Notes under the pieces: model-generated
The model's input: only the letters and a program-made list of their open reading frames with translations
Databases searched by the model: none
What the model was told of the DNA's origin: nothing
Translations under genes and position numbers: made by a program
In this document: one piece after another, positions 3,854 through 31,152 of the stretch
Position numbering within the stretch: position 1 is the stretch's first letter
Layout: every line of letters starts with the position of its first letter
DNA from: an uncultured Candidatus Saccharibacteria bacterium
Lineage (GTDB): Bacteria > Patescibacteriota > Minisyncoccia > Phycocordibacterales > VMEP01
Assembly: GCA_964361185.1 (NCBI GenBank)
Contig: CAYHZS010000002.1
Coordinates: forward strand, 1-32,321
Length of the DNA: 32,321 nt
Reading direction: 5' to 3'

Positions 3854-3888
3854 TTGTAGGTTATAAGTTGTGAGTTGTTAGTTTAGGT
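3854..3888 (+). repeat. Heptad array A: TTGTAGG TTATAAG TTGTGAG TTGTTAG TTTAGGT
   Basis: Five tandem degenerate 7-mers end 6 nt before tRNA-His. The array is about 80 percent identical to array C upstream of rplK. Confidence 0.8.
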
Positions 3889-3894
3889 AGATAT

Positions 3895-3967
3895 GGTGCC
3901 TATAGTGTAATGGTTAGCACTAGAGATTGTGGATCTCTCAGTCTGGGTTCAAATCCCAGTAGGCACC
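3895..3967 (+). tRNA. tRNA-His (anticodon GTG) with genome-encoded G-1 paired to C73; CCA not encoded
   Basis: Hand-folded cloverleaf. Acceptor GTGCCTA pairs with TAGGCAC, and D stem GTGT with GCAC. Anticodon stem AGAGA pairs with TCTCT around loop TTGTGGA. T stem CTGGG pairs with CCCAG around loop TTCAAAT. Confidence 0.88.
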
Positions 3968-3986
3968 CAATTCTAAATTTTCAAGT

Positions 3987-4337
3987 ATGGACAAAATCCG
4001 CATAGACAATTTGGTTTTCTCCGGCAAGCACGGCGCTTACAAAAAAGAGCGTAATGTGGAGCAGGAATTTGAAGTTTACGTGGAAATATCTTTTGACGCG
4101 ACTCTTTCGGCGCGAACCGACAAGCTAGAAGACACTGTTGATTATTCCGGCATGAAAAATTCCGTGCGCGAAATCATCGAAGGGAGCTCGTGCTACCTAA
4201 TAGAAAAATTGGCAAGCAATATAGCGGATAAAATACTCTTGGACAAAAGAATTGCAGGTGTTTCCGTCATGGTCAAAAAAACCAGCGTGTGGGACAACGG
4301 AGCACCCTCGGTCACCGTAAATAAGAGCAGGAGATAA
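3987..4337 (+). CDS. folB: Dihydroneopterin aldolase
   Basis: IRIDNLVFSGKHGAYKKERNVEQEFEVYVEI...DTVDY...LIEKLA pattern of FolB. Length is 116 aa. Confidence 0.8.
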   Translation: MDKIRIDNLVFSGKHGAYKKERNVEQEFEVYVEISFDATLSARTDKLEDTVDYSGMKNSVREIIEGSSCYLIEKLASNIADKILLDKRIAGVSVMVKKTSVWDNGAPSVTVNKSRR

Positions 4338-4379
4338 TCCGGATTGGAAAGTCCGAGCTTTTGCTATACTTTCGAATAA

Positions 4380-4928
4380 ATGAAGTGGTACATACATTTG
4401 ATTAGGGACTTACTAATATTTTCTTTAAGCGTAGTCTTCGCGCTTTTTTTAATAAAAATAAACGTCTTTGAACGTATTCTCCAATCGACAAGCGAAATAC
4501 GATTTTTGAGCGTTTTTGTCGCAGGGTTGTTTTTTACTTCTCTGGTGACGCTTCCGGTTTCTATTGTGGCTCTGGTAGAGCTTTCGGGCATTGTCCCGCT
4601 TGGAGAATTGGTTTTAATTGGAGCTATCGGTGCGCTAATTGGCGACCTGATACTTTTCTATTCCGTGCGTGGTCATTTTTCACATGACTTTGAACTTTTA
4701 AGCCACAGGCCCGTATTTGAGCGTCTGGCTAAGGTAATGCACCTTAATATGTTCAAATGGACAATACCATTTATTGGCGCGCTAATCATTGTTTCGCCTT
4801 TTCCGGATGAGATAGGTTTGGCCATGCTTGGCATAGCAAGAACCAAATTATCGGCGCTCGTTCCCATATCTTTGAGTATGAATGCACTAGGAATACTGAT
4901 TATAGCGGGTTTCTCAATCATCTGGTAG
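4380..4928 (+). CDS. Polytopic membrane protein, DedA/VTT-domain-like
   Basis: About five hydrophobic helices plus an IGALIGDLILFY motif resembling DedA/TVP38 family proteins. Confidence 0.5.
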   Translation: MKWYIHLIRDLLIFSLSVVFALFLIKINVFERILQSTSEIRFLSVFVAGLFFTSLVTLPVSIVALVELSGIVPLGELVLIGAIGALIGDLILFYSVRGHFSHDFELLSHRPVFERLAKVMHLNMFKWTIPFIGALIIVSPFPDEIGLAMLGIARTKLSALVPISLSMNALGILIIAGFSIIW

Positions 4929-4997
4929 CTTTGAGTTTTGGGTTGTATAATACAGATTATTCCTCGGATAGCGATTAATAAAATAAACAATAATAAT

Positions 4998-5486
4998 ATG
5001 ATTGGAAAATGCGAATCAGATTCTTGTGGGGCTTGCGGGAGGGGCTGGTGCAAAATATTAATACGAGTGCTTGTAGCGGCAATATTTATTTATGCTGGTT
5101 ACAGCAAAATTACCGATATTGCCGGTACATCCGGGTATATTGCAAGCATTATGGGTGTATCAGCCGGCACGGCGACTTTTTTCGCCTGGGCTTCGGGTTT
5201 GCTTGAGCTAGTTGCCGGCGTTCTTTTAGTCGTCGGCTCTTGGGGAAAACGCTACTCTGCCTGGTTTTTGGTAGCCTTTACTCTCGTGGCCACCTACTTT
5301 TTCCATTTGAAGGGTGCTTTAGCCGGAGATTCCATGCAGTGGGTGCAAGTTCTTAAAAATTTGGCTATTATCGGAGGACTTGCGATGTTGGGCGGTTGTG
5401 TTTGCGGACGCTACGGCTTATGCGGAAAGGAGTCATGTGGCAAATGCGAAGAAGGAAAGTGCGAGCACCACGAGGATAAAAAATAG
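4998..5486 (+). CDS. DoxX family membrane protein with Cys-rich N- and C-terminal tails
   Basis: The DoxX-like core is AAIFIYAGYSKI...LLELVAGVLLV. The N-terminal tail is CESDSCGACGRGWC. The C-terminal tail is GGCVCGRYGLCGKESCGKCEEGKCEHH. The ATG at 4998 is preferred over the TTG at 4938, which lies inside a TATAAT box (4946-4951). Confidence 0.75.
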   Translation: MIGKCESDSCGACGRGWCKILIRVLVAAIFIYAGYSKITDIAGTSGYIASIMGVSAGTATFFAWASGLLELVAGVLLVVGSWGKRYSAWFLVAFTLVATYFFHLKGALAGDSMQWVQVLKNLAIIGGLAMLGGCVCGRYGLCGKESCGKCEEGKCEHHEDKK

Positions 5487-5501
5487 CTAAAATTTAGAAA
5501 A

Positions 5502-6140
5502 ATGAAAGGAGCTGTTATTTGGGGAACAGTAGTATTAGTACTAATAGGGACAGTTTTTGGCGTGGCTTGGCTTGCTAAAGCGCCCTCTTCCGGCACGGCT
5601 TTGACAATTCCGGAAATTTCCACCGCTGATCAAACCCGCGGTCCCAAAGATGCCAGAGTGGTCTTGGTTGAATACAGCGATTTCCAGTGTCCGGCTTGCG
5701 GAGCTTTTTTCCCCCGCCTGGAAGACCTAAATAAAGAGCTTGAAGGAAAAATCCTATTTATTTACAGAAATTTTCCGTTGCCCCAGCACAAAAACGCCGA
5801 ACTTGCCGCTTATGCCGCTGAAGCGGCCGGCAGGCAAGGAAAATTTTGGGAGATGCACTCCGTTCTCTTTGAAAAACAGAGCGAATGGTCGGAGCTCGCT
5901 GATGCCAAAGAGACATTCTACAAATACGCGGAATCAATCGGTTTGGATACGGGTTCTTTTAAAGCCGAGATGAATTCCGGAGAAGTCAAAGCCAAAATTT
6001 CGACAGATCGCGAGGGTGGCAGGCGCGCCTCGGTCAATTCAACCCCGACATTTTATTTGAATGGAAAGAAAATGGAAGGATATAATTCATATGATGATTT
6101 CGCAAAACAAGTCAGAGATGCCGTACAAAACAATCCCTAA
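5502..6140 (+). CDS. DsbA-like thiol:disulfide oxidoreductase (membrane-anchored thioredoxin fold)
   Basis: N-terminal TM helix, a CPAC active site within YSDFQCPACGAF, and a TPTFYLNG cis-Pro region. Confidence 0.85.
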   Translation: MKGAVIWGTVVLVLIGTVFGVAWLAKAPSSGTALTIPEISTADQTRGPKDARVVLVEYSDFQCPACGAFFPRLEDLNKELEGKILFIYRNFPLPQHKNAELAAYAAEAAGRQGKFWEMHSVLFEKQSEWSELADAKETFYKYAESIGLDTGSFKAEMNSGEVKAKISTDREGGRRASVNSTPTFYLNGKKMEGYNSYDDFAKQVRDAVQNNP

Positions 6141-6585
6141 TGCATTTGCCTGGGCAATTTTGGCCGTTGGCTTTTTGGGTTTTGTCGACGCGTTATATCT
6201 TACCGCCAAAAGGTTCCTTGGTTCGCCTCTCCAGTGTTATTTTTTTGGGGGATGCGACGCGGTTAACTCAAGTCCATACTCGAACCTCTTAGGAATACCC
6301 CTTTCTCTCTACGGCTCTGTGTTTTATCTCTTGGTTGTTCTGACCGCCGTGTATTATCTGCAAAGCAAAAATCCGGTAGCGGTGAAGGCTCTTATGGCAC
6401 TTACAACACTCGGCTTTCTTTTTGCCTGTTATACCTTCTCACTCCAGGCTTTTGTGATAAAAGCGTATTGTTTCTATTGCGTGCTTTCTATGGTGACCTC
6501 TACGGCAAATTTCGTTCTTATGTTTATCGCCTGGAAAAAATATTTCTCCAAAGAATCTAACACTCTGTCCGAAGAAAAAATTTAG
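6118..6585 (+). CDS. Vitamin K epoxide reductase (VKOR) family protein
   Basis: Four TM helices, a loop Cys pair (LQCYFFGGCD) and a CFYC active-site motif. The start is chosen at MPYKTIP. It overlaps the DsbA-like gene's end by 23 nt. Confidence 0.8.
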   Translation: MPYKTIPNAFAWAILAVGFLGFVDALYLTAKRFLGSPLQCYFFGGCDAVNSSPYSNLLGIPLSLYGSVFYLLVVLTAVYYLQSKNPVAVKALMALTTLGFLFACYTFSLQAFVIKAYCFYCVLSMVTSTANFVLMFIAWKKYFSKESNTLSEEKI

Positions 6586-6602
6586 AGGGTTATATAAAAA
6601 AC

Positions 6603-6634
6603 AATGGGGCGGTGTCGATTAAGACCGCCCCATT
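6603..6634 (-). terminator. Intrinsic terminator for the minus-strand orphan (also closes the VKOR gene)
   Basis: The 11-bp stem AATGGGGCGGT pairs with ACCGCCCCATT. The T-run follows on the minus strand (A-run 6595-6601 on plus). Confidence 0.7.
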
Positions 6635-6643
6635 CGCGCCCTC

Positions 6644-6979
6644 TCATATTTCGGCCTCTTTTTTCACGGCCTTGAGCTTTGGTCCTGCCAGGAAATCCGC
6701 GTGTTCGCGTATGGGCGCCAGTACCGTGCCGATTACCGCGCGCGCGGGAAAGAGGGGAATTACTACTTCTACTCCTTCCGCGAACCTGTCCCAAAGTGAA
6801 CACCATTCCCTGAGGACTGAAGCAATCACTTTGAGCGGTGGTTCGGGTGCCCGCAATCCGTTTTGGACGGTTTCAGAAAACGCTTCATGGGCTACTTTTG
6901 CCGTTGCGTCCACCCATGCTTCTGTGCCAATGTCTTCCATTTTCCACTTTCTATGGGCCATATCCAGAGCGCTTTTCAT
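6644..6979 (-). CDS. Hypothetical protein, 111 aa, GC-richer orphan
   Basis: Balanced amino-acid composition, AAGGA located 9 nt upstream of the ATG, and its own terminator. The overlapping plus-strand ORF 6612-7016 has antisense-like Ala/Ser/Arg-rich composition. Confidence 0.55.
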   Translation of the reverse strand: MKSALDMAHRKWKMEDIGTEAWVDATAKVAHEAFSETVQNGLRAPEPPLKVIASVLREWCSLWDRFAEGVEVVIPLFPARAVIGTVLAPIREHADFLAGPKLKAVKKEAEI

Positions 6980-7120
6980 GATGAGGATTCCTTATCAAGG
7001 GATACATCTACAGTAATTGTGAAGCAATAGCTTTTTCTATGCAACCCCAGAAGTAAAGGTTACCGCAGTACTAGAGAATACTCAGTACACGGCAAGCTCA
7101 CTATGGGGCAGGCGCACCTA

Positions 7121-7129
7121 TGTTATAAT
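7121..7129 (+). promoter_or_regulatory. Extended -10 promoter element TGtTATAAT upstream of the SIMPL gene
   Basis: Exact TGnTATAAT match located 30 nt before the ATG at 7159. Confidence 0.5.
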
Positions 7130-7158
7130 TACTATGTTAATAAATAATCCATAAAAAT

Positions 7159-7992: not shown

Positions 7993-8011
7993 GATAATAG
8001 GCGATTACATC

Positions 8012-8049: not shown

Positions 8050-8086
8050 GGCCCATTGACTTCTATCCAGGGTAGAGTAAAGTGTT

Positions 8087-8916: not shown

Positions 8917-8944
8917 CTAACGACCCACAACCCACGACCAAAGA
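8917..8944 (-). repeat. Heptad array B (C/A-strand form): CTAACGA CCCACAA CCCACGA CCAAAGA
   Basis: Four 7-mers just after the nusG stop. It is an imperfect complement of array C (about 15 of 20 pairs in the best register). Confidence 0.75.
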
Positions 8945-8980
8945 TACGAGGTCAAGGAATTTGTATCTAACATCGTTTTA

Positions 8981-9015
8981 TTGTAGGTTGTAAGTTGTCA
9001 GTCGTAAGTTTAAAT
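8981..9015 (+). repeat. Heptad array C: TTGTAGG TTGTAAG TTGTCAG TCGTAAG TTTAAAT
   Basis: Five 7-mers end 3 nt before the rplK ATG. Confidence 0.8.
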
Positions 9016-9018: not shown

Positions 9019-9441
9019 ATGGCCAAGAAAATAACAAAGAAAATAAAGCTTCAGATTTCAGCGGGAAAGGCGACACCTGCTCCTCCTTTGGGGCCCGCGC
9101 TCGGACAGGCAGGGGTCAATATCGGTGACTTTGTCACTAAATTCAATGCTGCCACCCAGAAAATGATTGGGGATACGGTTTCGGTTGTAGTTTCAGTATA
9201 CGAGGACCGAACGTTTGATTTCATTGTTAAAACTCCGCCGGCGTCGGGTCTTATAAAGAAGGCGGCCGGAGTGGAGAAAGGTTCCGGCAAACAGCTCGTG
9301 ACCAAAGCTGGGAAAATCACCAAAGCCCAACTCCGCGAAATCGCCGAAAAAAAGATGCAGGATTTAAATGCCCATACTGTTGAGCAGGCTATGAAAATTA
9401 TCGAAGGCTCCGCTCGCTCAATGGGGATTGATGTGAAGTAA
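9019..9441 (+). CDS. rplK: 50S ribosomal protein L11
   Basis: [26 protein letters not shown] is the L11 signature. The ATG at 9019 is preferred. The ORF-track start at 8995 reads through the heptad array. Confidence 0.95.
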
Positions 9442-9444
9442 TAA

Positions 9445-9479
9445 CCTACGAATAACGACCTATAACTAACATCTAAAAA
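9445..9479 (-). repeat. Heptad array D (C/A-strand form): CCTACGA ATAACGA CCTATAA CTAACAT CTAAAAA
   Basis: Five 7-mers start 4 nt after the rplK stop, in opposite orientation to array C. Confidence 0.75.
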
Positions 9480-9480
9480 C

Positions 9481-9510
9481 AAAACCCGCCAATTCGGCGG
9501 GTTTTGTTTT
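9481..9510 (+). terminator. Intrinsic terminator after rplK
   Basis: AAAACCCGCC, loop AATTC, then GGCGGGTTTTGTTTT. Confidence 0.8.
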
Positions 9511-9590
9511 TAAGGGCGGGTTGTGATAGGTATATGTGTAGAAACGTAAGGTTTTGCGATTTGGCACTTAAGTCAAACGGAGGTGGTTTA

Positions 9591-10151
9591 ATGAAAAAAG
9601 TGACGTCTCTTCGCGAACTCAGGATGCTTATGAAGGATTTTGGCGTAGATACAAGCACTTGGGGTAGAGATAAAGCCAAAACTCTGACCCATCTTTTTTG
9701 CGAAGTCAGGGATGGTGAATGCGCTCTTGCCGTAACCGATGACGGCAGACTGGTCAGAGAGGTTTCCGTTCTCTGTCTGGATATTGAGTACAAGGGAATG
9801 GTTTTGAGAGAGGACTTCCAGCTTTTCTACGAGGGCAAGCGCCGACGCGAAAGGGAGCTTGATGCGTCAACGGGCGAAAAGTTTAAGCCTGGAGAAACAC
9901 CGGAACAAGCCCTTAGCCGCTTGGTCAACGAGGAGTTCCCGATCCTGTCCCTTCAGCCCAAAGAAGATTTCAAGTTTACGGGGGATAAGTTCAGGGAGTC
10001 AGACAGCGTAAGTTACCCCGGACTCCATACACGCTACCGACTGTGCTTTTTCGCGGTTGAGCTTACAGTGGAACTGCCGGCGATAACTGTCCAGGAGCCT
10101 GACAAGCTTGTGGCATACAAGTGGGTTGCCTCACCCACGCGGTCAACGTAA
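9591..10151 (+). CDS. Hypothetical protein, 186 aa, GC-richer orphan with a degenerate Nudix-box-like segment
   Basis: Strong SD GGAGGTG 5 nt before the ATG at 9591. GEKFKPGETPEQALSRLVNEEFPI resembles Gx5Ex7REUxEExGU, but with one extra residue and RL in place of RE. Confidence 0.55.
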   Translation: MKKVTSLRELRMLMKDFGVDTSTWGRDKAKTLTHLFCEVRDGECALAVTDDGRLVREVSVLCLDIEYKGMVLREDFQLFYEGKRRRERELDASTGEKFKPGETPEQALSRLVNEEFPILSLQPKEDFKFTGDKFRESDSVSYPGLHTRYRLCFFAVELTVELPAITVQEPDKLVAYKWVASPTRST

Positions 10152-10208: not shown

Positions 10209-10865
10209 TTAAAGATACTTTTCGAGTTCAAGCAGGGAGGAGAGCTGCGGGCAATCAACGCCATCGTTTTTTTCTTTGATATTCACTAAAATACTTTTTA
10301 CTCCTATATTTTTTGGAACTTCATAGTCACTCATAACCCTGTCGCCGATATAAAGGAAATTTTCCGGAGGCAAATCATAAAAAGACAGCCATATTTTATA
10401 AGCTGAGCCGTCTGATTTTGAAGCGTCATCTTTAGTGATAATGTGGCTGAAGATTTCTTTGCCGATGTCGAGCTTCTTAAGTTTTCTATGGGTTATTGAA
10501 CCGTTAGATCCGGTGATTACATCCAAATTTTTATATTTTTCTTTAAGTTTTTTTAAAAGATTTATAGTCTCCGGGTTTGGAACGAGGAATGAGGCTATGT
10601 CGGCCCTCTCGAGCGCTTCCTGGACGATTTCTTTTCCGTTTGGTATCTCCAGAGTCGCAAGCGCCTTGCTCCCTCCCATACCCGCTCCATCTTTGTAAAG
10701 ATCGGCGAAAAGCGCCCTCGCCTCTCCCAAGGAGCACTTTTTGCTCGCGGCAATTTTTTCATAAATATATTTTTGAATTGCCTCGTCAATTTCCGGCGAT
10801 TTCGGATACAGAGTCTGGTCAAGATCAAAGCCAATGACTTTAGTTTTATTTTTGTAATCAATCAT
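10209..10865 (-). CDS. HAD-superfamily hydrolase, resembles pyrimidine 5'-nucleotidase (SDT1-like) subfamily
   Basis: FDLDQTLY motif I, ITGSN motif II region and YIGDRVMSD motif IV. Its ATG overlaps the stop of the upstream 803-aa gene (ATGA). Confidence 0.75.
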   Translation of the reverse strand: MIDYKNKTKVIGFDLDQTLYPKSPEIDEAIQKYIYEKIAASKKCSLGEARALFADLYKDGAGMGGSKALATLEIPNGKEIVQEALERADIASFLVPNPETINLLKKLKEKYKNLDVITGSNGSITHRKLKKLDIGKEIFSHIITKDDASKSDGSAYKIWLSFYDLPPENFLYIGDRVMSDYEVPKNIGVKSILVNIKEKNDGVDCPQLSSLLELEKYL

Positions 10866-13273
10866 TGTGTAAAAGCGACGTAAAACAAAGAAAGGTTCCC
10901 AAGGGGATATCCAAGTGTTTCACTGAATTTTGTCGATATATAGTTTAGTAATTCAAGGTCTTCTTTTTGTTTGCTAATGGAATGGTTCATAAAGACTGCC
11001 GTCGCGTGTACTTTACCGCCCATTACGTTCGCCTGGAAGAACGCCAAATAGTCTCCCTGAGGGTCCATTTTTCCGGCTTTGTACTCCGTTAAAATAGGAT
11101 TATTATGCATTACTCCTTTTTCTTTAAGATAGAAAATAGCTTTTTCAATTGTGTTTACACCCTCCATATTTTCCAGCCGGTCGAGAATAAAATTATTTGG
11201 TCGCGAAGCTATTTTCTGAAGAGGGACAAAGCTATAAGCAACACCGGTTTCATTCGCCAAAGGAAACTTGGTGTTTTCGGCTAGCTGGTATGGTCCGCTT
11301 TTTGAATCAATTTCATCCATCGGTTTAGATGGTTCGCTCATCAGTTTTTTAGACCGCTGTTCTTCAGTCAGAAGGAGTATGTTTGCTCTACTTGATAACA
11401 TATACATATCTCCGGGTTTCGCGCCGAGTTTCTCTCTAACGGTGCATATATAAGCGTCATGAAGACCAAATATATTTTCGGGGTACGCATTCACGGTATT
11501 ATGGGCGCGAGCTATGTGAAATGAGTGCAGATGTCCGTTTTGCAGAAAAAAAATATCATGAGTAAGGCACGGGTCGTGCGTGTACTTTGTTTTGCCGGTG
11601 TCCGGGTCGGTATAGCTTCTCATGTCTTCTACCGGGTCAAAGCGCTGTATTATAGCGGCTCTAGTCGGATTATTTTTTAGAACAAGGGCGGTTTTAGGGA
11701 GCTGATCAAAGCCAAAAAACACCCTCGTGCGTTCCCCGTAGCTATAGTCGCCATCATGGTCAAAACGCAGAAGCTGGGCTTTGTAAGCCTCACGTATTTC
11801 TTCAGTACTTCTCTCTCCCTGTTTGTATATTGCCGAAAGCGAGGCCAGCGCTTTTGCGGCATTGCGGTAAATCGCGAGCATTACCGCGGAACGAGCCGAC
11901 CCTTTTTGCTTATCGCCGTGTTCTTCCGTAAGTCCTTGAGTATATATTTTCATAAGGACTTGCTTATGTACGTCTAAAAAATTATCCCCGTCGGCTATGA
12001 GTAGGGGAAGACTCTCCGTATTAATCTTGAAAATGTTTGGGAAGTCTTGAATAAAAGCGTAATTAAACGAAGCGGCTATGGTGGCCCGGCCGATTTGCCC
12101 ACCAATGTCAATTCGGTGCAGTATGTCCATTTCGTAGTTCTCAAAGCGGTTATTTTCGGACAGCCATTCAAAAAGCCCGCCGATTTTTAGAGATCGCAGT
12201 TCGAAAACTTCCTCGCAGACATCAAAAGCGAGGCACATTACCGCTACTTGGCTCTCCCTTACGTTAATTTTGTAATAATATTTTTTATCGGTTATGAGAG
12301 AAACTTTTGATTCAAGCATTATTTCTTTTTGCCCGGTAAGGTTCTTTGATTTCACGAAAGAAGGGAATTTTATTTCATTTTTTATCTCCGCGCTTACGCG
12401 GGCAATTTCCGCTCCCAGGAAAAACTGGTTTAAGTTGCCTATTTCTTTTTTCCTGTCGCCTAAAAATTTCATAAGGGAATATTCAAGCAAAAATTCGTCC
12501 GGACTTTTTATAAAAAAAGTGTCTTCACCTACCCTGATATCCAGGCGGATTAATCCTTTTTTGTTTTGCACTATAAAATCAACTTCAGGGACAAATTCTT
12601 TCGGAGGTATGTCTATTTTGGGTGGTTGCAGATGCTGAAATTCTTTCGGGTCAAGCTCCACAACTCCGCGTTCTTTAGGCGCGGATGCTCCAAGGAGAGA
12701 CACAAGCTTGTTCAATGAGTCGTAATATATTTTCCCTGTTTCGTTCGCTTCTTTCAAAAATTCATATACGTCTGATGGCAGTTTTGGACGCGCCCATTCC
12801 AGATAGTCAATGACTATCTTCTTGCCGTAATCGTTCTTGTACATGAACATCGGTAGGACTGTTATATTGTCGCGGAATGAATCCACTATTTTTTCGGAGA
12901 GGCTCGGGTAGTGTGACGAGGCCGCCTTGCCGTTTATTATCTGGTGGTCGCGGTCTTCGATGTTGATTCCATACTGAAGCGCCAAGAGAAGATTCGTGCT
13001 TGGTGAAAAGGTGAGCGACTCCTCGGAGAAAAGTATGAGATATGAGAGCGTGGGGTGGGACAGGGAATTTAGTATCATTCTTTCGGCCCCATCCCGGCTT
13101 ACGATAAGAGAACCCAAGACCGAAACAAAACGCCGTTCCTTTCCCTCAAGTTCATTCAGCACCTGTCCCGGGGCGGTGGTGTTGGTGCAGATGCCTATAA
13201 AACCGTCTTTACCCTCAGGTGGAGTTAAGAGAAGCGCATCCACTATCGGGAATTGGGAAATTTTTACAGCCAT
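10862..13273 (-). CDS. 803-aa fusion of an MtrA-like domain, two DUF4346-like modules, a thymidylate-synthase-fold domain and a degenerate TS-like C-terminal segment
   Basis: Residues ~1-165 (nt 12779-13273) align by eye to MtrA: G.L....DGAE..I.NSLSHP.LSYLILFSEES...L..GI......I.G. Residues ~228-412 (nt 12038-12592) hold two modules ending FLGAEIARVSAEI and RIDIGGQIGRATIAASFNYAFIQD. Residues ~425-640 (nt 11354-12001) carry YGER...FDQLPKTALVLKNNPTRAAIIQRFDP...DPCLTHDIFFLQNGHLHSFHIARAHN...YPENI, with the Cys codon at 11567-11569. Confidence 0.7.
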   Translation of the reverse strand: MAVKISQFPIVDALLLTPPEGKDGFIGICTNTTAPGQVLNELEGKERRFVSVLGSLIVSRDGAERMILNSLSHPTLSYLILFSEESLTFSPSTNLLLALQYGINIEDRDHQIINGKAASSHYPSLSEKIVDSFRDNITVLPMFMYKNDYGKKIVIDYLEWARPKLPSDVYEFLKEANETGKIYYDSLNKLVSLLGASAPKERGVVELDPKEFQHLQPPKIDIPPKEFVPEVDFIVQNKKGLIRLDIRVGEDTFFIKSPDEFLLEYSLMKFLGDRKKEIGNLNQFFLGAEIARVSAEIKNEIKFPSFVKSKNLTGQKEIMLESKVSLITDKKYYYKINVRESQVAVMCLAFDVCEEVFELRSLKIGGLFEWLSENNRFENYEMDILHRIDIGGQIGRATIAASFNYAFIQDFPNIFKINTESLPLLIADGDNFLDVHKQVLMKIYTQGLTEEHGDKQKGSARSAVMLAIYRNAAKALASLSAIYKQGERSTEEIREAYKAQLLRFDHDGDYSYGERTRVFFGFDQLPKTALVLKNNPTRAAIIQRFDPVEDMRSYTDPDTGKTKYTHDPCLTHDIFFLQNGHLHSFHIARAHNTVNAYPENIFGLHDAYICTVREKLGAKPGDMYMLSSRANILLLTEEQRSKKLMSEPSKPMDEIDSKSGPYQLAENTKFPLANETGVAYSFVPLQKIASRPNNFILDRLENMEGVNTIEKAIFYLKEKGVMHNNPILTEYKAGKMDPQGDYLAFFQANVMGGKVHATAVFMNHSISKQKEDLELLNYISTKFSETLGYPLGNLSLFYVAFTQ

Positions 13274-17146: not shown

Positions 17147-17181
17147 TAACTAGTTTTTAGCTATTAGCTTATAGCTTTTAG
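17147..17181 (+). repeat. Heptad array K: TAACTAG TTTTTAG CTATTAG CTTATAG CTTTTAG
   Basis: Five 7-mers start immediately after the argS stop. Confidence 0.7.
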
Positions 17182-17273
17182 TAAATACAAAAACCTGCAA
17201 CTTCTTTTTTTGTTGACACCATAAGTGTATTCTTGTAGCTTTTGTTTAGTGATTTTTAGATAAGGGGGCGCAC

Positions 17274-17678
17274 GTGCCACAAATTGCTCGCTGTAACAGC
17301 TACGTTCTTTATCGGCACTCTGGTTCTGGGGGAACGAAGTTCGCCCGGCCAGGTGAAGAGTTGCCCGAATCAATAGAAGAAGGCGTTTGGGAAGCACTTG
17401 CCGAAGACAATATCAAGGCGACTGACACAATTCCTGTTTTAGTACAGGCGGAAGACTATGTTCTCAGATTCAACGTGAATTCCATTCCCGAAGAAGGTCA
17501 GTTATTCAATTTTCGTCAGGTGGGGACAGATGAGTTCCCATCCTCTGGCCTGTTTCGTGTTAAAGAGGTCTGGATAGTCAACAACGACGCGTATTGTGTA
17601 AGTGTCGCCAGACTCAGCGACGTGGATCCCGGGAGCTTGATTTTTGATCTGGAAGTGTACTCATTGGGCCGAGTTTGA
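17274..17678 (+). CDS. Hypothetical protein, 134 aa, GC-richer orphan (GTG start)
   Basis: SD AAGGGGG lies 5 nt upstream of the GTG at 17274. A strong terminator follows. No family was recognised. Confidence 0.5.
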   Translation: MPQIARCNSYVLYRHSGSGGTKFARPGEELPESIEEGVWEALAEDNIKATDTIPVLVQAEDYVLRFNVNSIPEEGQLFNFRQVGTDEFPSSGLFRVKEVWIVNNDAYCVSVARLSDVDPGSLIFDLEVYSLGRV

Positions 17679-17689
17679 GAGTTTCCCCG

Positions 17690-17727
17690 CACCGGACACA
17701 CTATAACTATATGTGTCCGGTGTTTTT
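17690..17727 (+). terminator. Intrinsic terminator after the orphan
   Basis: CACCGGACACA pairs with TGTGTCCGGTG across an 11-nt loop, followed by TTTTT. Confidence 0.8.
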
Positions 17728-17763
17728 CATTGGGCGATTTCCTGTGTTAGTATCTAAAGATAT

Positions 17764-20700
17764 ATGGACAAAAAAGATTCCAACGAAAAAAGAAAATCAG
17801 AAGTGGCGCTTACTGAAGAGCGTATTTTGGCCGGCTGGAAAGAAAAAAAGATTTTTGAGAAAACTCTTGAAAAGACCAAGAACGGTAAGCTGTTTGTTTT
17901 TTACGATGGCCCGCCTTTTGCGACAGGAGAGCCTCACTACGGGCATATTTTGGCAGGCACGATAAAAGATGCCATTCCGCGCTACCGCACAATGACGGGG
18001 CGGTATGTGAGGCGCCAGTGGGGTTGGGACTGTCATGGTCTTCCTGTTGAAAATATCATAGAGCAGGAACTCAAACTTTCTCACAAAAAAGACATAGAAG
18101 AATATGGCATAGGCAATTTCAATGAAGCGGCGCGGAGTGCCGTGCTTAGGTTTGATTCATTTTGGAAAAAGGCGGTACCGAGACTTGGGCGTTTCGTGGA
18201 CATGGATTTGTCGTATAAAACTATGGATGCCTCTTATTCTGAATCAATCTGGTGGGCGTTTAAAACTCTTTACGACAAAGGGCTCATATATGAAGGACAT
18301 AAAGTAATGTATGTCTGTCCCAGATGCGAGACACCAGTCTCCAATTTTGAGGTGGCGCAGGGGTATAAAGATACAACCGATATTTCGGTGACAGTGGAGT
18401 TTAAGTTGGTTGATAGTCCCGGCACATCTTTTCTGGCGTGGACTACTACGCCGTGGACGTTACCGGGCAATGTGGCTCTTGCTGTGGGTAAAGATATCGA
18501 CTATGTGACGATTGAGAAGAAAGACGAAGGTGTCGGAAAGAAAATTCGGTTCATTCTTGCGAAAAGTCGCCTTGAAACAATTTTTGCGGGGCAAGAATAT
18601 GTCATTGTGGCCGAGCACAAGGGGATGGATTTGGTTGGCATCAAGTATGTGCCACCCTTCGATTACTACTATAAAGATGAGTTATTAAATAACCGCGAAA
18701 ATGGTTGGAAGGTCTACGCGGCAGATTTCGTTTCAGCAGATGAGGGCACAGGCATAGCTCACGAAGCCCCAGCGTTTGGCGAGGATGACATGAATTTAGG
18801 CAACGAAGTTAAGTTGCCATTTGTCCAACACATAGAGATGGATGGACGATTTAAACCGGAGGTCAAAGATTTTGCCGGCATGTATGTAAAACAGAAAGAC
18901 GATACGCAGTCGGCGGATGTGGAAATCATAAAAAATCTGGCCAAGAGAAATCTGCTTTTCGCCAAAGAAAAAATAATCCATCCGTACCCAATGTGCTGGA
19001 GATGCGACACGCCTCTTCTCAATTACGCCACTCCGTCTTGGTTCGTTAAGGTAACGAAATTCCGCGACAAGGTCGTTTCAGAAAATAAAAAAGTCTGCTG
19101 GGTGCCGGAGCATGTGGGAGAAGGAAGATTCGGCAAATGGCTCGAAGGCGCGCGCGATTGGGCTATTTCACGTTCGCGCTATTGGGGCGCGCCTTTGCCC
19201 GTTTGGAAATGCCTGGAATGTGAAAAGGTTGAAGCGATAGGGAGCATAGAAGAGTTAAAGAAAAAAATTCCTAAAAGTGGCAATCGTTATTTTGTTATGC
19301 GCCACGGCCAGGCGGAAAGTAATGTTTCCGGGACCAATGATTCCAATGGTAATCCCGATAATCATCTTACGGAGAGCGGGAAGGAAAGTATAAAACTTGT
19401 CGCTAGTAAACTCTCTAAAGAAGGAATAACCCGTATCATAACGTCACCCTTCCCCCGCGCCAAAGAAAGCGCGGACATTATAGCGAATGAGCTAGGATTA
19501 TCGGAAGAGAAGATTGTATCAGATAGGCGCTTGATTGAATTCAATCATGGCTCCAAAGGTCAAGGTAAAACAATAATGAATAACACCTTAGAACCTTTTA
19601 ATGAAAATGATTTATATGTTAGGCATGGCGATGGTGAAAATCACGCAGAAGTCAGGACAAGGGTAGTTTCAGCTATATTCGACGCGGACAAAACATATAA
19701 GAATGAAACTATTCTCATAGTCACGCACGGTTCTCCCATGTGGATGCTTATTGCCGGAGCTCTAGGCATGAGCGACAAGGAAACACTGGAATATCAGAAA
19801 AAGCGTGCTAAAAATAATGGGGATTATTTCATCTCAAACGGCCAGGTTGAGGAGGTTGATTTTACACAGTTTCCTCACAATAAGGAGTATGTTATTGATT
19901 TACACCGCCCGTACATAGACGAGGTGATTTATGATTGCTCTTGTGGAGGAACGATGAAAAGAATTCTGGACGTTTTTGACTGCTGGTTTGAATCGGGGTC
20001 AATGCCTTACGCGCAGTTCCATTATCCATTTGAGAACAAGGAGGAATTCAAGAAAAATTTTCCGGCTGATTTTATTGCTGAAGGTCTCGACCAAACGCGC
20101 GGTTGGTTTTACAGCCTGATTATTTTGGGCGTCGGGCTTTTTGGAGAAACACCATACAGAAATGTCATCGTGAACGGACTGGTTTTGGGAAGTGACGGGC
20201 AGAAAATGTCCAAGCGTCTCAAGAATTATCCGGAAGTTATGGATGTGGTGGATAAATACGGCGCTGATTCTTTGCGATATTACCTCTTATCTTCTCCAAT
20301 AATGCGCGGGGAAGACTTGGTATTTTTGGAAAAAGGAATTGATGAAATATACAAGAAAAATATTTCCCGCCTCAATAATGTTTACTCTTTTTACGAATTA
20401 TATAAGGGAGACGAAAAGGGAAGCGACACTTCGGAAAATATTCTGGATAAATGGATTATCGCGCGCCTGAATGAACTTAAAAATGTAATGACCGAGGGGA
20501 TGGAAAAATACGAGCTTGATAAAGTGGCGAGGCCAGTCGCGGATTTTATTGACGATCTTTCCACATGGTATATCAGGCGCTCGCGCGAAAGATTTAAATC
20601 AGACAATGAAAATGATAAAAAAATGGCGCTTGAGACAACCCATTTTGTGCTTGAGGAATTTTCCAAGCTCATTGCCCCGCTTATGCCGTTTATAGCGGAT

Positions 20701-21261
20701 GATTTGTATTTGAAAGTTACACGTGGGGAAAAAGAAGAAAGCGTGCATTTGGAATCTTGGCCCAGTAACAACGGACAACGAACAACCAACAACCAACAAG
20801 TAATACAAGAAATGCAAAAGGTGCGTCAAATTGTTTCGCTTGGACTTGAGGCGAGATCGAAGGCGGGGATAAAAGTGAGGCAGCCGCTTCAAAACTTAAA
20901 ACTCAAAACTCAAAACTTAGAACCTGAATATATTGAATTAATTAAAGATGAAGTAAATGTGAAGGGAGTTACTTTTGATGAAGAGATTGAAAATGAAGTT
21001 GAATTGGATACAAATATTACACCAGAACTAAAAGAAGAAGGCGATGTTCGCGATTTAGTACGCGCTATTCAGGATTTCAGAAAAAAGGAAGGTCTTACTC
21101 CGAGCGACAAGGTTGCGCTTTTGGTTTCCTGCGACGAAAAAACAGCTTCTTTGATAAAAAAGAATGAAGATGAGTTAAAGCACTCAACTCTTTTAAGTCA
21201 TATATCCATTTCAAACTCCGACGGAGAAACTTCTTTCCAGGTGCTTAATCCGGGGTCGTAA
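17764..21261 (+). CDS. ileS: Isoleucine--tRNA ligase (type-2-like) carrying an inserted histidine-phosphatase domain
   Basis: PHYGH (HIGH), WAISRSRYWGAPLPVW, DQTRGWFYS and KMSKRL are IleRS signatures. At 1165 aa it is longer than expected because of the insert at 19285-19860. Confidence 0.95.
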   Translation: MDKKDSNEKRKSEVALTEERILAGWKEKKIFEKTLEKTKNGKLFVFYDGPPFATGEPHYGHILAGTIKDAIPRYRTMTGRYVRRQWGWDCHGLPVENIIEQELKLSHKKDIEEYGIGNFNEAARSAVLRFDSFWKKAVPRLGRFVDMDLSYKTMDASYSESIWWAFKTLYDKGLIYEGHKVMYVCPRCETPVSNFEVAQGYKDTTDISVTVEFKLVDSPGTSFLAWTTTPWTLPGNVALAVGKDIDYVTIEKKDEGVGKKIRFILAKSRLETIFAGQEYVIVAEHKGMDLVGIKYVPPFDYYYKDELLNNRENGWKVYAADFVSADEGTGIAHEAPAFGEDDMNLGNEVKLPFVQHIEMDGRFKPEVKDFAGMYVKQKDDTQSADVEIIKNLAKRNLLFAKEKIIHPYPMCWRCDTPLLNYATPSWFVKVTKFRDKVVSENKKVCWVPEHVGEGRFGKWLEGARDWAISRSRYWGAPLPVWKCLECEKVEAIGSIEELKKKIPKSGNRYFVMRHGQAESNVSGTNDSNGNPDNHLTESGKESIKLVASKLSKEGITRIITSPFPRAKESADIIANELGLSEEKIVSDRRLIEFNHGSKGQGKTIMNNTLEPFNENDLYVRHGDGENHAEVRTRVVSAIFDADKTYKNETILIVTHGSPMWMLIAGALGMSDKETLEYQKKRAKNNGDYFISNGQVEEVDFTQFPHNKEYVIDLHRPYIDEVIYDCSCGGTMKRILDVFDCWFESGSMPYAQFHYPFENKEEFKKNFPADFIAEGLDQTRGWFYSLIILGVGLFGETPYRNVIVNGLVLGSDGQKMSKRLKNYPEVMDVVDKYGADSLRYYLLSSPIMRGEDLVFLEKGIDEIYKKNISRLNNVYSFYELYKGDEKGSDTSENILDKWIIARLNELKNVMTEGMEKYELDKVARPVADFIDDLSTWYIRRSRERFKSDNENDKKMALETTHFVLEEFSKLIAPLMPFIADDLYLKVTRGEKEESVHLESWPSNNGQRTTNNQQVIQEMQKVRQIVSLGLEARSKAGIKVRQPLQNLKLKTQNLEPEYIELIKDEVNVKGVTFDEEIENEVELDTNITPELKEEGDVRDLVRAIQDFRKKEGLTPSDKVALLVSCDEKTASLIKKNEDELKHSTLLSHISISNSDGETSFQVLNPGS
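19285..19860 (+). other. Histidine-phosphatase (PGAM/CobC-like) domain embedded in ileS
   Basis: RYFVMRHGQAESN (RHG motif), SPFPRAKESA, LIEFNHG..GQGKT, GENHAEVRTRV and ILIVTHGSPMWML (second His motif). The segment lies between KCLECE and DCSCGG. Confidence 0.8.
20765..20799 (-). repeat. Heptad array E inside ileS: GTAACAA CGGACAA CGAACAA CCAACAA CCAACAA
   Basis: Five 7-mers on the C/A strand (complement TTGTTGG TTGTTGG TTGTTCG TTGTCCG TTGTTAC). They encode SNNGQRTTNNQQ. Confidence 0.75.
20891..20925 (+). repeat. Heptad array F inside ileS: AAAACTT AAAACTC AAAACTC AAAACTT AGAACCT
   Basis: Five 7-mers that encode QNLKLKTQNLEP. Confidence 0.75.
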
Positions 21262-25982: not shown

Positions 25983-26009
25983 TTGTTGGTTGTGGAGTTT
26001 GGTTGTATC
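25983..26009 (+). repeat. Heptad array G: TTGTTGG TTGTGGA GTTTGG TTGTATC
   Basis: It starts 4 nt after the glyQS stop and ends 15 nt before the transporter ATG. One unit is 6 nt long. Confidence 0.65.
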
Positions 26010-28809: not shown

Positions 28810-28811
28810 GC

Positions 28812-29597
28812 ATGCGGTTCTTTGACGCGCATTCTCACATACACGGCAAAGAATTCGACGCCGATCGAAGCGAAGTCTTGGCGCGCATGCGCGCAACGGA
28901 CGTTTCAACAATTACTGTCGGTACACATTTTGAAAGTTCTGAGAAAGCTGTCGCATTGGCGGAAAAAGAAAAAAATATTTGGGCAACAGTGGGGCTTCAT
29001 CCGACTGATACCAAAGAATCGTTTGATTATGAAGCCTATAAAAAATTGGCATTGTCCCCGCGCGTTGTGGCGATAGGCGAGTGTGGCTTGGATTATTTCT
29101 GGGAAGGAGATGGTGATGAGCGCGAAAAGCAAAAAGAAAAATTCAAGACTCAAATAAATCTCGCGCTTGAAATAGGTAAGCCTATAATGATACATAGTCG
29201 GCCGTCCCGCGGGAGTATGGATGCGTACGAAAATGTCTTGGATATTCTAACCTCTAACTTCTCACTCCCAACCTCCCAATCTCCCGGCAACGTGCATTTT
29301 TTTGTCGGTAACGAAAAGATCGCACGTAGATTTCTCGAACTTGGTTTTACGATGTCCTTTACGGGAGTAATTACTTTTGCGCGAGATTATGACGAGGTTA
29401 TAAAATTTTTGCCATTGAGTTCTATTTTATCCGAGACAGACTGTCCCTATGTTTCCCCCGTGCCATACCGCGGGAAGCGCAACGAGCCGGCTTACGTGGC
29501 GGAAGTGGCCAGGAAGATTGCGGAAATAAAAGATATTTCAATTGACCAGACAGTCTCTGCCATTGCCGGAAACATCAACCGCGTCTTCGGGGTTTAA
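28812..29597 (+). CDS. tatD: TatD-family metal-dependent hydrolase (DNase)
   Basis: FFDAHSHI, GECGLDY, MIHSR, HFF.G and ETDCPY motifs. Confidence 0.9.
   Translation: MRFFDAHSHIHGKEFDADRSEVLARMRATDVSTITVGTHFESSEKAVALAEKEKNIWATVGLHPTDTKESFDYEAYKKLALSPRVVAIGECGLDYFWEGDGDEREKQKEKFKTQINLALEIGKPIMIHSRPSRGSMDAYENVLDILTSNFSLPTSQSPGNVHFFVGNEKIARRFLELGFTMSFTGVITFARDYDEVIKFLPLSSILSETDCPYVSPVPYRGKRNEPAYVAEVARKIAEIKDISIDQTVSAIAGNINRVFGV
29244..29285 (-). repeat. Heptad array H inside tatD: ATTCTAA CCTCTAA CTTCTCA CTCCCAA CCTCCCA ATCTCCC
   Basis: Six 7-mers encoding ILTSNFSLPTSQSP. They share CCAATCTCC with the right arm of array I. Confidence 0.7.
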
Positions 29598-29624
29598 CTT
29601 CCAGTGTTGCCGTACGAGCAACTT

Positions 29625-29653
29625 TTGACTTACTGTTGGTCATTTGGTAGTAT
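29625..29653 (+). promoter_or_regulatory. Promoter of rpsF-ssb-rpsR: TTGACT-17 nt-TAGTAT with TG extension
   Basis: The -35 is at 29625-29630 and the -10 at 29648-29653, preceded by TGg. It lies 16 nt upstream of the rpsF ATG. Confidence 0.6.
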
Positions 29654-29669
29654 GCCTCAATAGAAAATT

Positions 29670-30149
29670 ATGACTGAAAATGACGACAAAGGGAGCAAAA
29701 TCTATGAAGTTGGCTACCTCCTTGTGCCTGAGCTTTCCGAAAGCGCAGTAGCCGAAGAGGTCGGTAATTTAAAGTCTCTTATTTTGGACACCGTCGGCGC
29801 AGCCGAGATTGGAAGTGAAATGCCTAAAATGATTGACTTAAGCTACCAAATGGAGAAACGTGTCGGGTCCAAGAAAGTATTTTATACCAAAGCTCATTTC
29901 GGCTGGATTAAATTTGAGCTTCACTCCGGGAAAATTGCCGACGTGAAAGAATCTCTCGCCAAAAACAATAAAATAATTCGTTTCCTAATTATTAAGACTG
30001 TTCGCGAAAATACCATGGTGGCGAAGAAAGTGTTTGTGCGCCAACCCGAAGCGGCAGCGCGTAAAAAACCTGGGATTGCCGGCGAGCAGGCTCCGGCCAT
30101 GACGGAAGAAGAAATGGACAAAACAATTGAGGAATTAGTTATTGAATAA
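29670..30149 (+). CDS. rpsF: 30S ribosomal protein S6 with extended acidic C-terminal tail
   Basis: YEVGYLLVPELSE start and its position before ssb and rpsR. At 159 aa it is longer than typical S6. Confidence 0.9.
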   Translation: MTENDDKGSKIYEVGYLLVPELSESAVAEEVGNLKSLILDTVGAAEIGSEMPKMIDLSYQMEKRVGSKKVFYTKAHFGWIKFELHSGKIADVKESLAKNNKIIRFLIIKTVRENTMVAKKVFVRQPEAAARKKPGIAGEQAPAMTEEEMDKTIEELVIE

Positions 30150-30152
30150 AAA

Positions 30153-30222
30153 TTAGAAGTTAAAGATGAGAAGTTGGCAGTTAGGAAATCAAATTTCCAA
30201 TCTCCAACTTCCAATATCAAAA
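30153..30222. repeat. Heptad array I: five T/G-type units, then C/A-type units, forming an imperfect long palindrome
   Basis: TTAGAAG TTAAAGA TGAGAAG TTGGCAG TTAGGAA ATCAAAT TTCCAAT CTCCAAC TTCCAAT ATCAAAA. The centre GGAAAT-CAA-ATTTCC is a perfect 6-bp stem. The array fills the rpsF-ssb spacer. Confidence 0.8.
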
Positions 30223-30225
30223 TTC

Positions 30226-30651
30226 ATGTACGTCAATAAAGCGCTAATTTACGGCAACTTAACCCGCGATCCGGAATTAAAGTCTCTTCCTTCGGGAAAC
30301 AAAGTGTGCAGTTTTTCCATAGCTACAAATCGGGTGTGGAAGGGAGAAGACGGTTCAAAAAAGGAGGCTGTCGATTATCACAATATTGTCGTCTTCGGCA
30401 GGCAGGCTGAAACGAGCGCCCAGTATTTAAGAAAAGGAGCAGGCGTTTTTATAGAAGGAAGGATGCAAACGCGGAGCTGGGAGCAGGAAGGGCAGAAAAA
30501 ATACCGCACGGAAATTGTGGCTGACAGAGTGCAATTTGGTCCGCGTCCCGGCGGAGGGGGAGGAAGCGCACCTCAAGCGGTGGCTCCCGTGGAGACACCG
30601 GCAATTGAGTATCCGGAAGAAGACATAAATCCGGAAGACATTCCGTTTTAA
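30226..30651 (+). CDS. ssb: Single-stranded DNA-binding protein
   Basis: NKALIYGNLTRDPELK in the OB fold, a Gly-rich linker and a C-terminal acidic tip ending DIPF. The ATG at 30226 is preferred. The ORF-track start at 30166 reads through array I. Confidence 0.95.
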   Translation: MYVNKALIYGNLTRDPELKSLPSGNKVCSFSIATNRVWKGEDGSKKEAVDYHNIVVFGRQAETSAQYLRKGAGVFIEGRMQTRSWEQEGQKKYRTEIVADRVQFGPRPGGGGGSAPQAVAPVETPAIEYPEEDINPEDIPF

Positions 30652-30694
30652 GCGAATTGGCCTCCGACGCAGCGTCGGAGTCGCTAAACCTTAA

Positions 30695-30799
30695 TCCCTC
30701 CCCACTTTTATTGATTAGTAGTAAGAAATGTGATAGGTTTTAGAAACAAATAAATTTTAAATGGATGATTATAGGTTAATGAATAAAAGTGGGGAGGGA
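30695..30799. repeat. 105-bp segment bounded by an 18-bp perfect inverted repeat
   Basis: TCCCTCCCCACTTTTATT (30695-30712) pairs with AATAAAAGTGGGGAGGGA (30782-30799) around a 69-nt AT-rich interior. It sits in the ssb-rpsR spacer. Confidence 0.85.
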
Positions 30800-30840
30800 C
30801 ATTATTTTCAAAAACTCGCCTAGCTCGCTCTAGAAAATAT

Positions 30841-31044
30841 ATGAAGAAACAGTGTTACTTCGATTCAAATAACATCAAGCACATCGACTACAAAGATGTC
30901 GAGACTTTGAAGAAATTCATAAATCCGCACGCCCGCATGGTTTCAAAGAGGCGCTCCAGCGTGTCTTCCAAAAATCAGCGTAAGTTGGCTGTTGCCATAA
31001 AGCGTGCCCGTTTTATGGGGCTCCTTCCTTTCGTGGCGAAATAA
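30841..31044 (+). CDS. rpsR: 30S ribosomal protein S18
   Basis: IDYKDVETLKKFI...RRSSVSSKNQRKLAVAIKRARFMGLLPF. Confidence 0.95.
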   Translation: MKKQCYFDSNNIKHIDYKDVETLKKFINPHARMVSKRRSSVSSKNQRKLAVAIKRARFMGLLPFVAK

Positions 31045-31082
31045 CCAGAAGATCTACGACTCGCGATTTACAAATTACTCTT

Positions 31083-31109
31083 AAAATACCGCCACAAGGC
31101 GGTATTTTA
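31083..31109. terminator. Bidirectional terminator between rpsR (+) and efp (-)
   Basis: AAAATACCGCC, loop ACAA, then GGCGGTATTTT. Confidence 0.8.
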
Positions 31110-31124
31110 GCAATTTAAATTTAG

Positions 31125-31152
31125 TTGTAGGTCGTAAGTTGTTGGTTATTTG
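31125..31152 (+). repeat. Heptad array J: TTGTAGG TCGTAAG TTGTTGG TTATTTG
   Basis: Four 7-mers that overlap the efp stop codon (31146-31148). Confidence 0.7.

Follow-up and report, generated by a model that had tools for sequence, protein, structure and literature searches.

Complementary arrays of degenerate 7-nt repeats pair across gene spacers in Patescibacteria and recur around PF05635 genes

Introduction

Tandem heptanucleotide arrays of intergenic DNA, among them the short tandemly repeated repetitive (STRR) sequences, the GGGAATC and TAACTGA repeats and the heptamers of the Coxiella intervening sequence, have to our knowledge been reported piecemeal and without an explanation. We likewise know of no function for PF05635, or S23p, a large protein family with a solved structure, which also goes by the names "23S rRNA intervening-sequence protein" and TIGR02436 four-helix-bundle protein and is related to Avd. 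Here we analyse a 32,321-nt stretch of contig CAYHZS010000002.1 (hereafter the window), which carries degenerate arrays of tandem 7-nt units, or heptads (TTGTAAG, TTAGAAG, TAGCTTT and similar), and for which a preliminary description had listed eight arrays, all of them intergenic. Arrays of complementary orientation pair into long hairpins, and this pairing is the main structural fact about them. The arrays are a real, non-random and lineage-wide feature, and a variant of a known, unexplained kind of repeat.

Several described repeats share part of this organization. The cyanobacterial STRR sequences, reportedly described by Mazel and colleagues in 1990, are said to be tandem heptanucleotides dispersed in non-coding DNA, as in the window, but near-perfect and longer, with neither pairing nor a link to PF05635 described. 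Repetitive extragenic palindromes and bacterial interspersed mosaic elements (REP/BIME), like the Correia elements or Neisseria miniature insertion sequences (Correia/NEMIS), are intergenic hairpin-formers at gene ends, some of them RNase III-processed or mRNA-stabilising; they differ from the window arrays in having no internal 7-nt periodicity, a defined consensus and transposases that are either known or suspected. The window also shows two features of miniature inverted-repeat transposable elements, inverted repeats at the termini and multiple similar copies.

The 23S intervening sequence of Coxiella carries two to three GACAGAT heptamers and one degenerate copy before an open reading frame (ORF) for S23p, the copy number being strain-variable, and RNase III cuts in its 28-bp terminal stem at the first repeat (PMC4990558). 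Elements of the kind seen in the window resemble the S23p-encoding 23S intervening sequences of Coxiella burnetii and Leptospira in their complementary termini, in a stem of about 28 bp and in a loop that may hold a PF05635 gene, and relatives of the window organism carry array-PF05635-array cassettes. The window copies differ in being ORF-less and in lying in mRNA spacers or before a tRNA gene rather than in an rRNA helix; an Rfam scan detected no rRNA in the window, and they share the long stem of complementary termini and not the 23S location. GGGAATC repeats form 70-75 convergent heptamer pairs per Xanthomonas genome (Rehm et al. 2015, PMC4692102), and a 4-unit GGGAATC array lies over the start of XCC0516, the gene of the crystallised S23p protein of Xanthomonas campestris (supplement of PMC4692102), although that paper draws no link to S23p. 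These, too, are intergenic arrays of few units in convergent inverted pairs, one of them at the start of an S23p gene, but their units are rich in G tracts and have been read as G-quadruplex formers, whereas the window arrays are without G tracts. The TAACTGA repeats of Beggiatoaceae, cyanobacteria and Bacteroidetes come in sets of two to six, mostly intergenic, end a few nucleotides before starts that lack a Shine-Dalgarno sequence, occur within ribosomal-protein operons, and inside ORFs adopt the reverse, stop-free orientation (MacGregor 2015, PMC4679880). In the window, two arrays likewise end 3 nt before starts without a Shine-Dalgarno sequence, and coding arrays take the A/C-rich orientation; the TAACTGA unit, however, is fixed, with one inverted case, whereas the window units are not TAACTGA and are degenerate, genome-specific and mostly paired. 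Beyond the single Coxiella case, no statement of a general link between PF05635 and heptamers was found in the searchable literature.

Results

Heptad arrays in the window

Periodicity was measured as the identity of each base with the base p nt downstream. At p = 7, 36 segments of 28 nt reached at least 20 matches, and at all other periods from 2 to 12 none did. With a threshold of 14/21, 11 period-7 regions were obtained, whereas first-order Markov shuffles gave 1.16 on average and never more than 4; the periodicity is thus beyond chance. Its eight arrays, referred to here as A, B, C, D, G, I, J and K, all lie where it had placed them. D and G fall below the threshold on their own, D being backed by the family alignment given below and by conservation in the relative L003, and G staying weak. 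Units within an array are 70-90% alike, and head-to-tail heptamers exceed the expectation from composition. Tandem Repeats Finder returned, at period 7, positions 8981-9010 and 17151-17181 and two sites in ileS absent from the earlier list. Three clear arrays in fact lie inside genes, two in ileS and one in tatD, and the arrays are therefore not exclusively intergenic as had been supposed. The view that they are not CRISPR repeats stands, as the 7-mers are contiguous, without spacers, and domain scans detected neither cas nor tas genes; the same observations exclude tandem interspaced guide RNA (TIGR) arrays.

Complementary arrays and their hairpins

The arrays occur in a G/T-rich form (A, C, G, the left arm of I, and J) and in the complementary, A/C-rich form (B, D and the right arm of I). 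The preliminary description, right that the arrays are real, had overlooked their complementarity and pairing, the partner arrays D' and J', the coding copies and the terminators that some pairs enclose. Coordinates of arrays and hairpins refer to the plus strand, except those of the two terminator-like hairpins, to which no strand is assigned. Between nusG and rplK, array B (8917-8944; A/C-type, four heptads CTAACGA, CCCACAA, CCCACGA and CCAAAGA), which begins 4 nt past the nusG stop, forms the 5' arm of a hairpin whose 3' arm is array C (8981-9015; G/T-type, five heptads TTGTAGG, TTGTAAG, TTGTCAG, TCGTAAG and TTTAAAT), and the loop between them (8945-8980) holds a small inner hairpin, GATACGAGGTCAAGGAATTTGTATC. 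B and C share 16/21 Watson-Crick pairs, and the segment 8905-9025 folds at -30.6 kcal/mol (z -3.1). Array I forms a hairpin by itself between rpsF and ssb: its left arm (30153-30187; units of TTAGAAG type in G/T orientation) begins 4 nt past the rpsF stop, its right arm (30193-30222; TTTCCAA-type) is the complement of the left and stops 3 nt short of the ssb ATG (30226), and the fold of 30140-30235 (-18.9 kcal/mol, z -3.3) was equalled in stability by 0/200 shuffles.

In two further pairs the arms surround a terminator-like hairpin. Array D (9445-9479; A/C-type, five degenerate heptads) begins 4 nt past the rplK stop and pairs with D' (9519-9553; degenerate G/T-type, absent from the earlier list) around a G+C-rich hairpin with a 19-pair stem and flanking A and T runs (9473-9513); the centroid fold of 9436-9575 has a z of -4.65. 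Array J' (31045-31080; degenerate A/C-type, likewise missing from that list) follows the rpsR stop directly and pairs with J (31125-31152; G/T-type, four heptads), which overlaps the efp stop (31146-31148, minus strand), around the hairpin AAAATACCGCC-ACAA-GGCGGTATTTT (31081-31108) between the convergent rpsR and efp; the segment 31040-31160 folds at -43.7 kcal/mol (z -7.2). The stems thus close on a short loop in B-C and I and on an ordinary terminator hairpin in D-D' and J'-J. They span 4-5 heptads (28-35 bp) and consist of blocks of 5-6 bp, one block per heptad, with 1-2 mismatches between blocks. The first array of a pair (B, D, the left arm of I, or J') begins 3-4 nt or less from a stop codon. 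With most arrays arranged as inverted pairs, the whole stop-to-start spacer folds into one long interrupted stem.

When all are written in G/T orientation, the window arrays A, B, C, D, J and J' and the copy of D in L003 fall into one register, with the consensus TTGTAGGTTGTAAGTTGTnAGTCGTnGGTT. Arrays A and C, noted earlier as near-identical, match at 34/38 ungapped positions. Every G/T-type array, G included, can form a duplex with every A/C-type array (D-J, for example, at -32 kcal/mol). The arrays are one dispersed family in two orientations, with I and K belonging to other unit families.

Three arrays stand alone. Array A (3854-3888; G/T-type, five heptads TTGTAGG, TTATAAG, TTGTGAG, TTGTTAG and TTTAGGT) ends 7 nt before tRNA-His (3896-3968) and has no local inverted partner with 16/21 Watson-Crick pairs inside 600 nt. 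Array K (17147-17181) consists of five TAG-N4 units, and the weak G/T-type array G (25983-26009) follows the stop (25979) of a class II tRNA synthetase gene and precedes an AI-2E transporter gene. As to the distances first described, arrays C and I do end 3 nt before rplK (ATG at 9019) and ssb, and for array A the gap had been given as 6 nt; all were right to within 1 nt. The apparent N-terminal ORF extensions at 8995, 25983 and 30166 are, as had been proposed, artefacts of reading through arrays, the Pfam matches starting well downstream.

The coding arrays comprise six AACAACG-type units in A/C orientation at 20761-20803 in ileS, encoding SNNGQRTTNNQQ with a self-match of 19/21; 4-5 TCAAAAC-type units at 20885-20919 in the same gene, encoding QNLKLKTQNLE; and four TTCTAAC-type units at 29245-29272, in a variable loop of tatD. 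We considered them as in-frame insertions and rejected this, since alignment to PDB structures gave +2, 0 and +3 residues, in variable linkers and with no real gain in length: the array at 20761-20803 adds only 2 aa relative to PDB 8c8u and the tatD array 3 aa relative to PDB 1j6o. In the ileS of the relative L002 there is no array matching 20761-20803.

The inner hairpins of D-D' and J'-J have the G+C-rich stem-loop and T run of intrinsic terminators, which B-C, I, A, G and K do not. A scan for promoter and terminator consensus sequences returned no excess over shuffles, the inner hairpin of D being the sole standout. A 23-nt inverted repeat in the ssb-rpsR spacer (30695-30717 and 30777-30799; TCCCTCCCCACTTTTATTGATTA and its complement), 96% complementary across a 59-nt loop, is not heptad-periodic and is therefore a different kind of spacer hairpin.

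Presence and absence at orthologous spacers

The comparison of orthologous spacers suggested in the preliminary description revealed presence/absence polymorphism. The nusG-rplK spacer is 5 nt long in L003, whose NusG is 93% identical and from which the whole B-C element is missing; it measures 105 nt in the window and reaches about 450 nt in L002 and L023, where it consists of a G/T array, a 123-aa ORF and a complementary array. The same array-PF05635-array cassette occupies this site in L086/L087, from a metagenome lineage. By contrast, the D-terminator-D' arrangement is common to the window and L003, in which the orthologous array lies at 11083-11125. At the B-C junctions, comparison with the empty site of L003 leaves a possible TA duplication only, which at 2 nt is uninformative.

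Array K lies at the left edge of an insertion of about 600 nt: the argS-ileS spacer is 617 nt long in the window (K, an ORF and a terminator) and about 20 nt in L002 and L003. In the remainder of this insertion (17182-17764), a terminator hairpin stands at about 17686-17724, and there are a promoter-like TTGACA-17 nt-TAGCTT and a ribosome-binding site, AAGGGGG; the 134 aa encoded by its ORF (17274-17678) match nothing in Pfam or NCBIfam.

Arrays in related genomes

The 80 closest NusG loci in species-representative genomes, all from Patescibacteria of the Paceibacteria/Parcubacteria type, make up 1.36 Mb together with the window, with 11% outside long ORFs. This sample contains 75 period-7 arrays, compared with 16-30 for periods 5, 8, 10 and 11, and the excess is non-coding: 53 of the 75 lie mostly outside ORFs, versus 4-12 mostly non-coding arrays for the control periods, an enrichment in non-coding DNA of about 5-fold. 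An inverted partner within 600 nt (at least 17/21 Watson-Crick pairs) accompanies 21/75 arrays and 0/75 in a reversed-array control, and many of the paired arrays, including those of L004 and L059, surround G+C-rich terminator-like hairpins. The spread is patchy (10 arrays in L021, 6 in L059, 0-1 in the two closest relatives) and the units are genome-specific, for example TAGCTTA, AATTGAAA, CTAGAAA, AATTACG and GTTGTAAG. No Rfam family covers the arrays.

The 20-kb locus L021 holds two AATTGAAAATT-type heptad hairpins, at 1695-1843 and 12325-12555, with similar arms and differing inner hairpins, and the same unit family is found in L049, L053, L069 and L079. We also considered a rule by which G/T-type arrays precede starts and A/C-type arrays follow stops; it fits 9/11 arrays of the window and the PF05635 cassettes described below, and fails for the ORF-less arrays of the relatives (15 vs 10 and 12 vs 16). 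A scan of viral sequences for TTGTAGGTYRTAAGTTGT returned 9 matches, none within arrays and at about chance level by a rough estimate.

Association with PF05635 genes

The ORFs of the L002 and L023 cassettes match PF05635 (Pfam E values of 9e-28 and 2e-40) and TIGR02436, and one of them matches PDB 2GSC, the structure of Xanthomonas XCC0516, at 1e-26. We then turned to 80 metagenomic loci, ranging in G+C content from the 0.30s to 0.70, that encode relatives of these two proteins; 76 of them were usable. A period-7 score of at least 15/21 was reached no more than 130 nt from the PF05635 ORF at 58/76 loci, versus 13/76 for periods 5 and 8, and the upstream and downstream flanks were complementary at 17/21 or better at 44/76 loci, versus 9/76 in the control. 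Up to 200 nt from the gene these contigs have 4.35 arrays per kb, and in the rest of their sequence 0.21 per kb, the latter still far above that of other periods (0.008-0.055 per kb). In the cassettes, the arrays extend from the stop of the upstream gene to the PF05635 ATG and from the PF05635 stop to the ATG of the next gene; on the sense strand of the gene, the upstream arm has G>C in 31/36 cases and the downstream arm G<C in 34/41.

The two arms of a cassette pair better with each other than with those of cassettes that encode a protein of 55% identity or more (49 cases versus 9), and proteins with this level of identity often lie between unrelated heptads. The arms therefore co-vary, and the heptad follows the host, not the protein. 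The proteins themselves are basic (median pI 9.15) and pentameric (five chains in 2GSC). Rfam detected no rRNA context at the 40 metagenomic loci scanned. A fixed heptad phase to the start codon, with AUG in the next "NAG" slot, was rejected, phases being evenly spread among the cassette arrays that abut an ATG.

No PF05635 gene or remnant was detected in the window with Pfam, NCBIfam or a custom hidden Markov model built from 71 sequences, and among the relatives the custom model found PF05635 only in L002 and L023. Some cassettes have flanks of 8-nt units (GAGTCAGC in L159, TAAGGGGC in L161), and period-8 arrays number 1.06 per kb near the PF05635 gene versus 0.055 per kb elsewhere. The cassette at L120 (187-791) lies between two tRNA genes, recalling array A before tRNA-His, and at L119 (3766-5606) a group II intron stands just downstream of a PF05635 gene. 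In L108 and L136 the cassette is directly followed by another heptad hairpin, built from the same unit family and without an ORF; the elements can therefore be tandem.

Gene context

By Pfam, the arrays of the window have housekeeping genes around them: a cobalamin adenosyltransferase-like gene followed by tRNA-His, secE-nusG-rplK, argS, ileS, genes for a class II tRNA synthetase and an AI-2E transporter, metS, tatD, and rpsF-ssb-rpsR, which faces efp and recA. A NusG identical to that of the window is also encoded in a contig from a Hainich groundwater metagenome. In both the window (9441-10151) and L003, rplK is followed not by rplA but by the D-D' hairpin and a NUDIX-domain gene, and the position of an 803-aa ORF without a Pfam match (10862-13273, minus strand) is conserved in L003. 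Residues 510-676 of the ileS product (gene 17764-21261; about nt 19291-19791) form a full His_Phos_1 histidine-phosphatase domain (E 6e-30) that splits the match to the catalytic domain into two halves, an unusual fusion or insertion for an isoleucyl-tRNA synthetase.

Discussion

The analysis demonstrates periodicity, pairing, insertion polymorphism, a tight association with PF05635 genes and co-variation of the arms. In our interpretation, for which we consider the chances about even, each array is a copy, in one orientation or the other, of a lineage-specific heptad-array element of a kind that is insertion-derived, resembles intervening sequences and fills mRNA spacers. The best-supported reading of the individual copies is that the window holds ORF-less or solo members, that the full form brackets a PF05635 gene, and that the rRNA form is the classical ORF-carrying intervening sequence. 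Such elements would have arisen by insertion and be largely selfish or neutral, and they may be tolerated because the closed hairpin would keep the upstream stop beside the downstream start. Co-transcribed stems would likely be substrates of RNase III that punctuate operon mRNA, by analogy with the Coxiella intervening sequence, and heptamer slippage probably sets the lengths of the arms. Among the roles put forward in the preliminary description, an invasive element and RNA processing fit best, because of the spacer polymorphism and cassettes on the one hand and the RNase III cut in the Coxiella heptamer stem on the other; protein binding is a less likely role, with sequence-specific recognition disfavoured.

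Several observations weigh against this interpretation. The window contains no rnc gene and no transposase, and neither a target-site duplication nor a mobility enzyme was identified. Sense and antisense folds of 20 hairpins are equally stable and show no consistent G-U bias, so that nothing favours a constraint at the RNA level over one at the DNA level, and an RNA-specific (G-U) signature was accordingly rejected. A model of hairpins only leaves unexplained both arrays A, G and K, which are without a local partner, and the three coding arrays, which add no length; these solo and coding arrays call for an additional process, slippage or conversion for instance. In L003, too, the outer heptads of array D are without a local partner. 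Finally, ORF-less arrays far outnumber PF05635 genes (about 75 versus 2 in the 1.36 Mb, and none of the latter in the window), and the link of the window arrays to PF05635 is therefore one of architecture and neighbourhood, not of a gene that is present.

The arrays might instead be neutral by-products of replication slippage, with heptamers as the long simple-sequence repeat that many bacteria favour, possibly through the polymerase footprint; they would build up in non-coding DNA and have neither function nor identity as an element. Heptamer repeats are over-represented in many prokaryotic genomes, for which slippage has been offered as the rationale (cited in PMC4692102, PMC4679880), unit number varies among Coxiella strains (PMC4990558), and the window arrays are degenerate and their occurrence among relatives is patchy. 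We nevertheless consider this account unlikely, as slippage alone gives no complementary arrays across a loop (21/75 versus 0/75) and leaves unexplained the co-variation of arms (49 versus 9), the near-identical dispersed copies A and C, and the 20-fold concentration beside one gene family. Comparably improbable in our judgement is that the arrays are bound by a nucleic-acid-binding protein of ring shape or multimeric form, whether pentameric PF05635 acting in trans or a protein like S1, Csp or CsrA, which would control downstream translation in the manner of TRAP or HutP. This would accord with the placement of array ends 3-7 nt before rplK, ssb and tRNA-His, in place of a Shine-Dalgarno sequence, as also seen for TAACTGA (PMC4679880), with the prevalence of arrays of 4-5 units, with the basic, pentameric nature of PF05635 proteins, and with the arrays at the start codons of PF05635 genes themselves, which would fit autoregulation. 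However, the lower bound of four units was set by the detector used, heptads keep no fixed phase to the ATG, and the ORF-less arrays of relatives occur in either orientation to starts and stops; moreover, sequence-specific recognition is disfavoured because PF05635 proteins of at least 55% identity are flanked by unrelated heptads.

The enclosed hairpins invite a reading of the arrays as extended stems of intrinsic, partly bidirectional terminators or as 3'-end stabilisers, since D-D' and J'-J, like pairs in L004 and L059, have at their centre a canonical hairpin that is rich in G+C and comes with runs of A and T. Yet B-C and I lie within operons, just upstream of the rplK and ssb genes, and no T run follows their stems; solo and coding arrays find no explanation, and arms of the same kind bracket the gene in PF05635 cassettes, which together make this reading quite improbable. 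We regard as least probable of all that classical miniature inverted-repeat transposable elements, moved by a transposase encoded elsewhere, have these arrays as their ends. Inverted termini, dispersed similar copies and presence or absence at an orthologous site speak for this, and the B-C junctions are compatible with TA duplication, but a 2-nt match is not evidence, the arms differ in sequence among copies within one genome and are internally periodic, unlike known terminal inverted repeats, and the window yielded no transposase.

Our preferred interpretation, of insertion-derived elements resembling intervening sequences, may be part of something larger. Tentatively, and with the balance of probability against it, the hairpins of heptad arrays could, together with the pentameric proteins of PF05635 (S23p, Avd-like), be one widespread, unrecognised genetic element or system, in which each genome has its own stem families and PF05635 genes, inside some of them, would act on the arrays in mobility, maintenance, RNA processing or translation control.

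In summary, our work extends the occurrence of heptamer arrays to Patescibacteria, in which we found no earlier description of them, and ties PF05635 genes to flanking complementary heptad arrays, with ORF-less copies scattered in the same genomes. The arrays also affect annotation, as they produce false N-terminal extensions of ORFs and inflate spacers that then appear regulatory. Three separate literatures are joined in this way, with an experimentally anchored hypothesis at hand in stems cut by RNase III as in intervening sequences. If true, a single PF05635-heptad system would explain the long-noted excess of heptamers, where ORF-carrying rRNA intervening sequences come from and what a large orphan protein family does.

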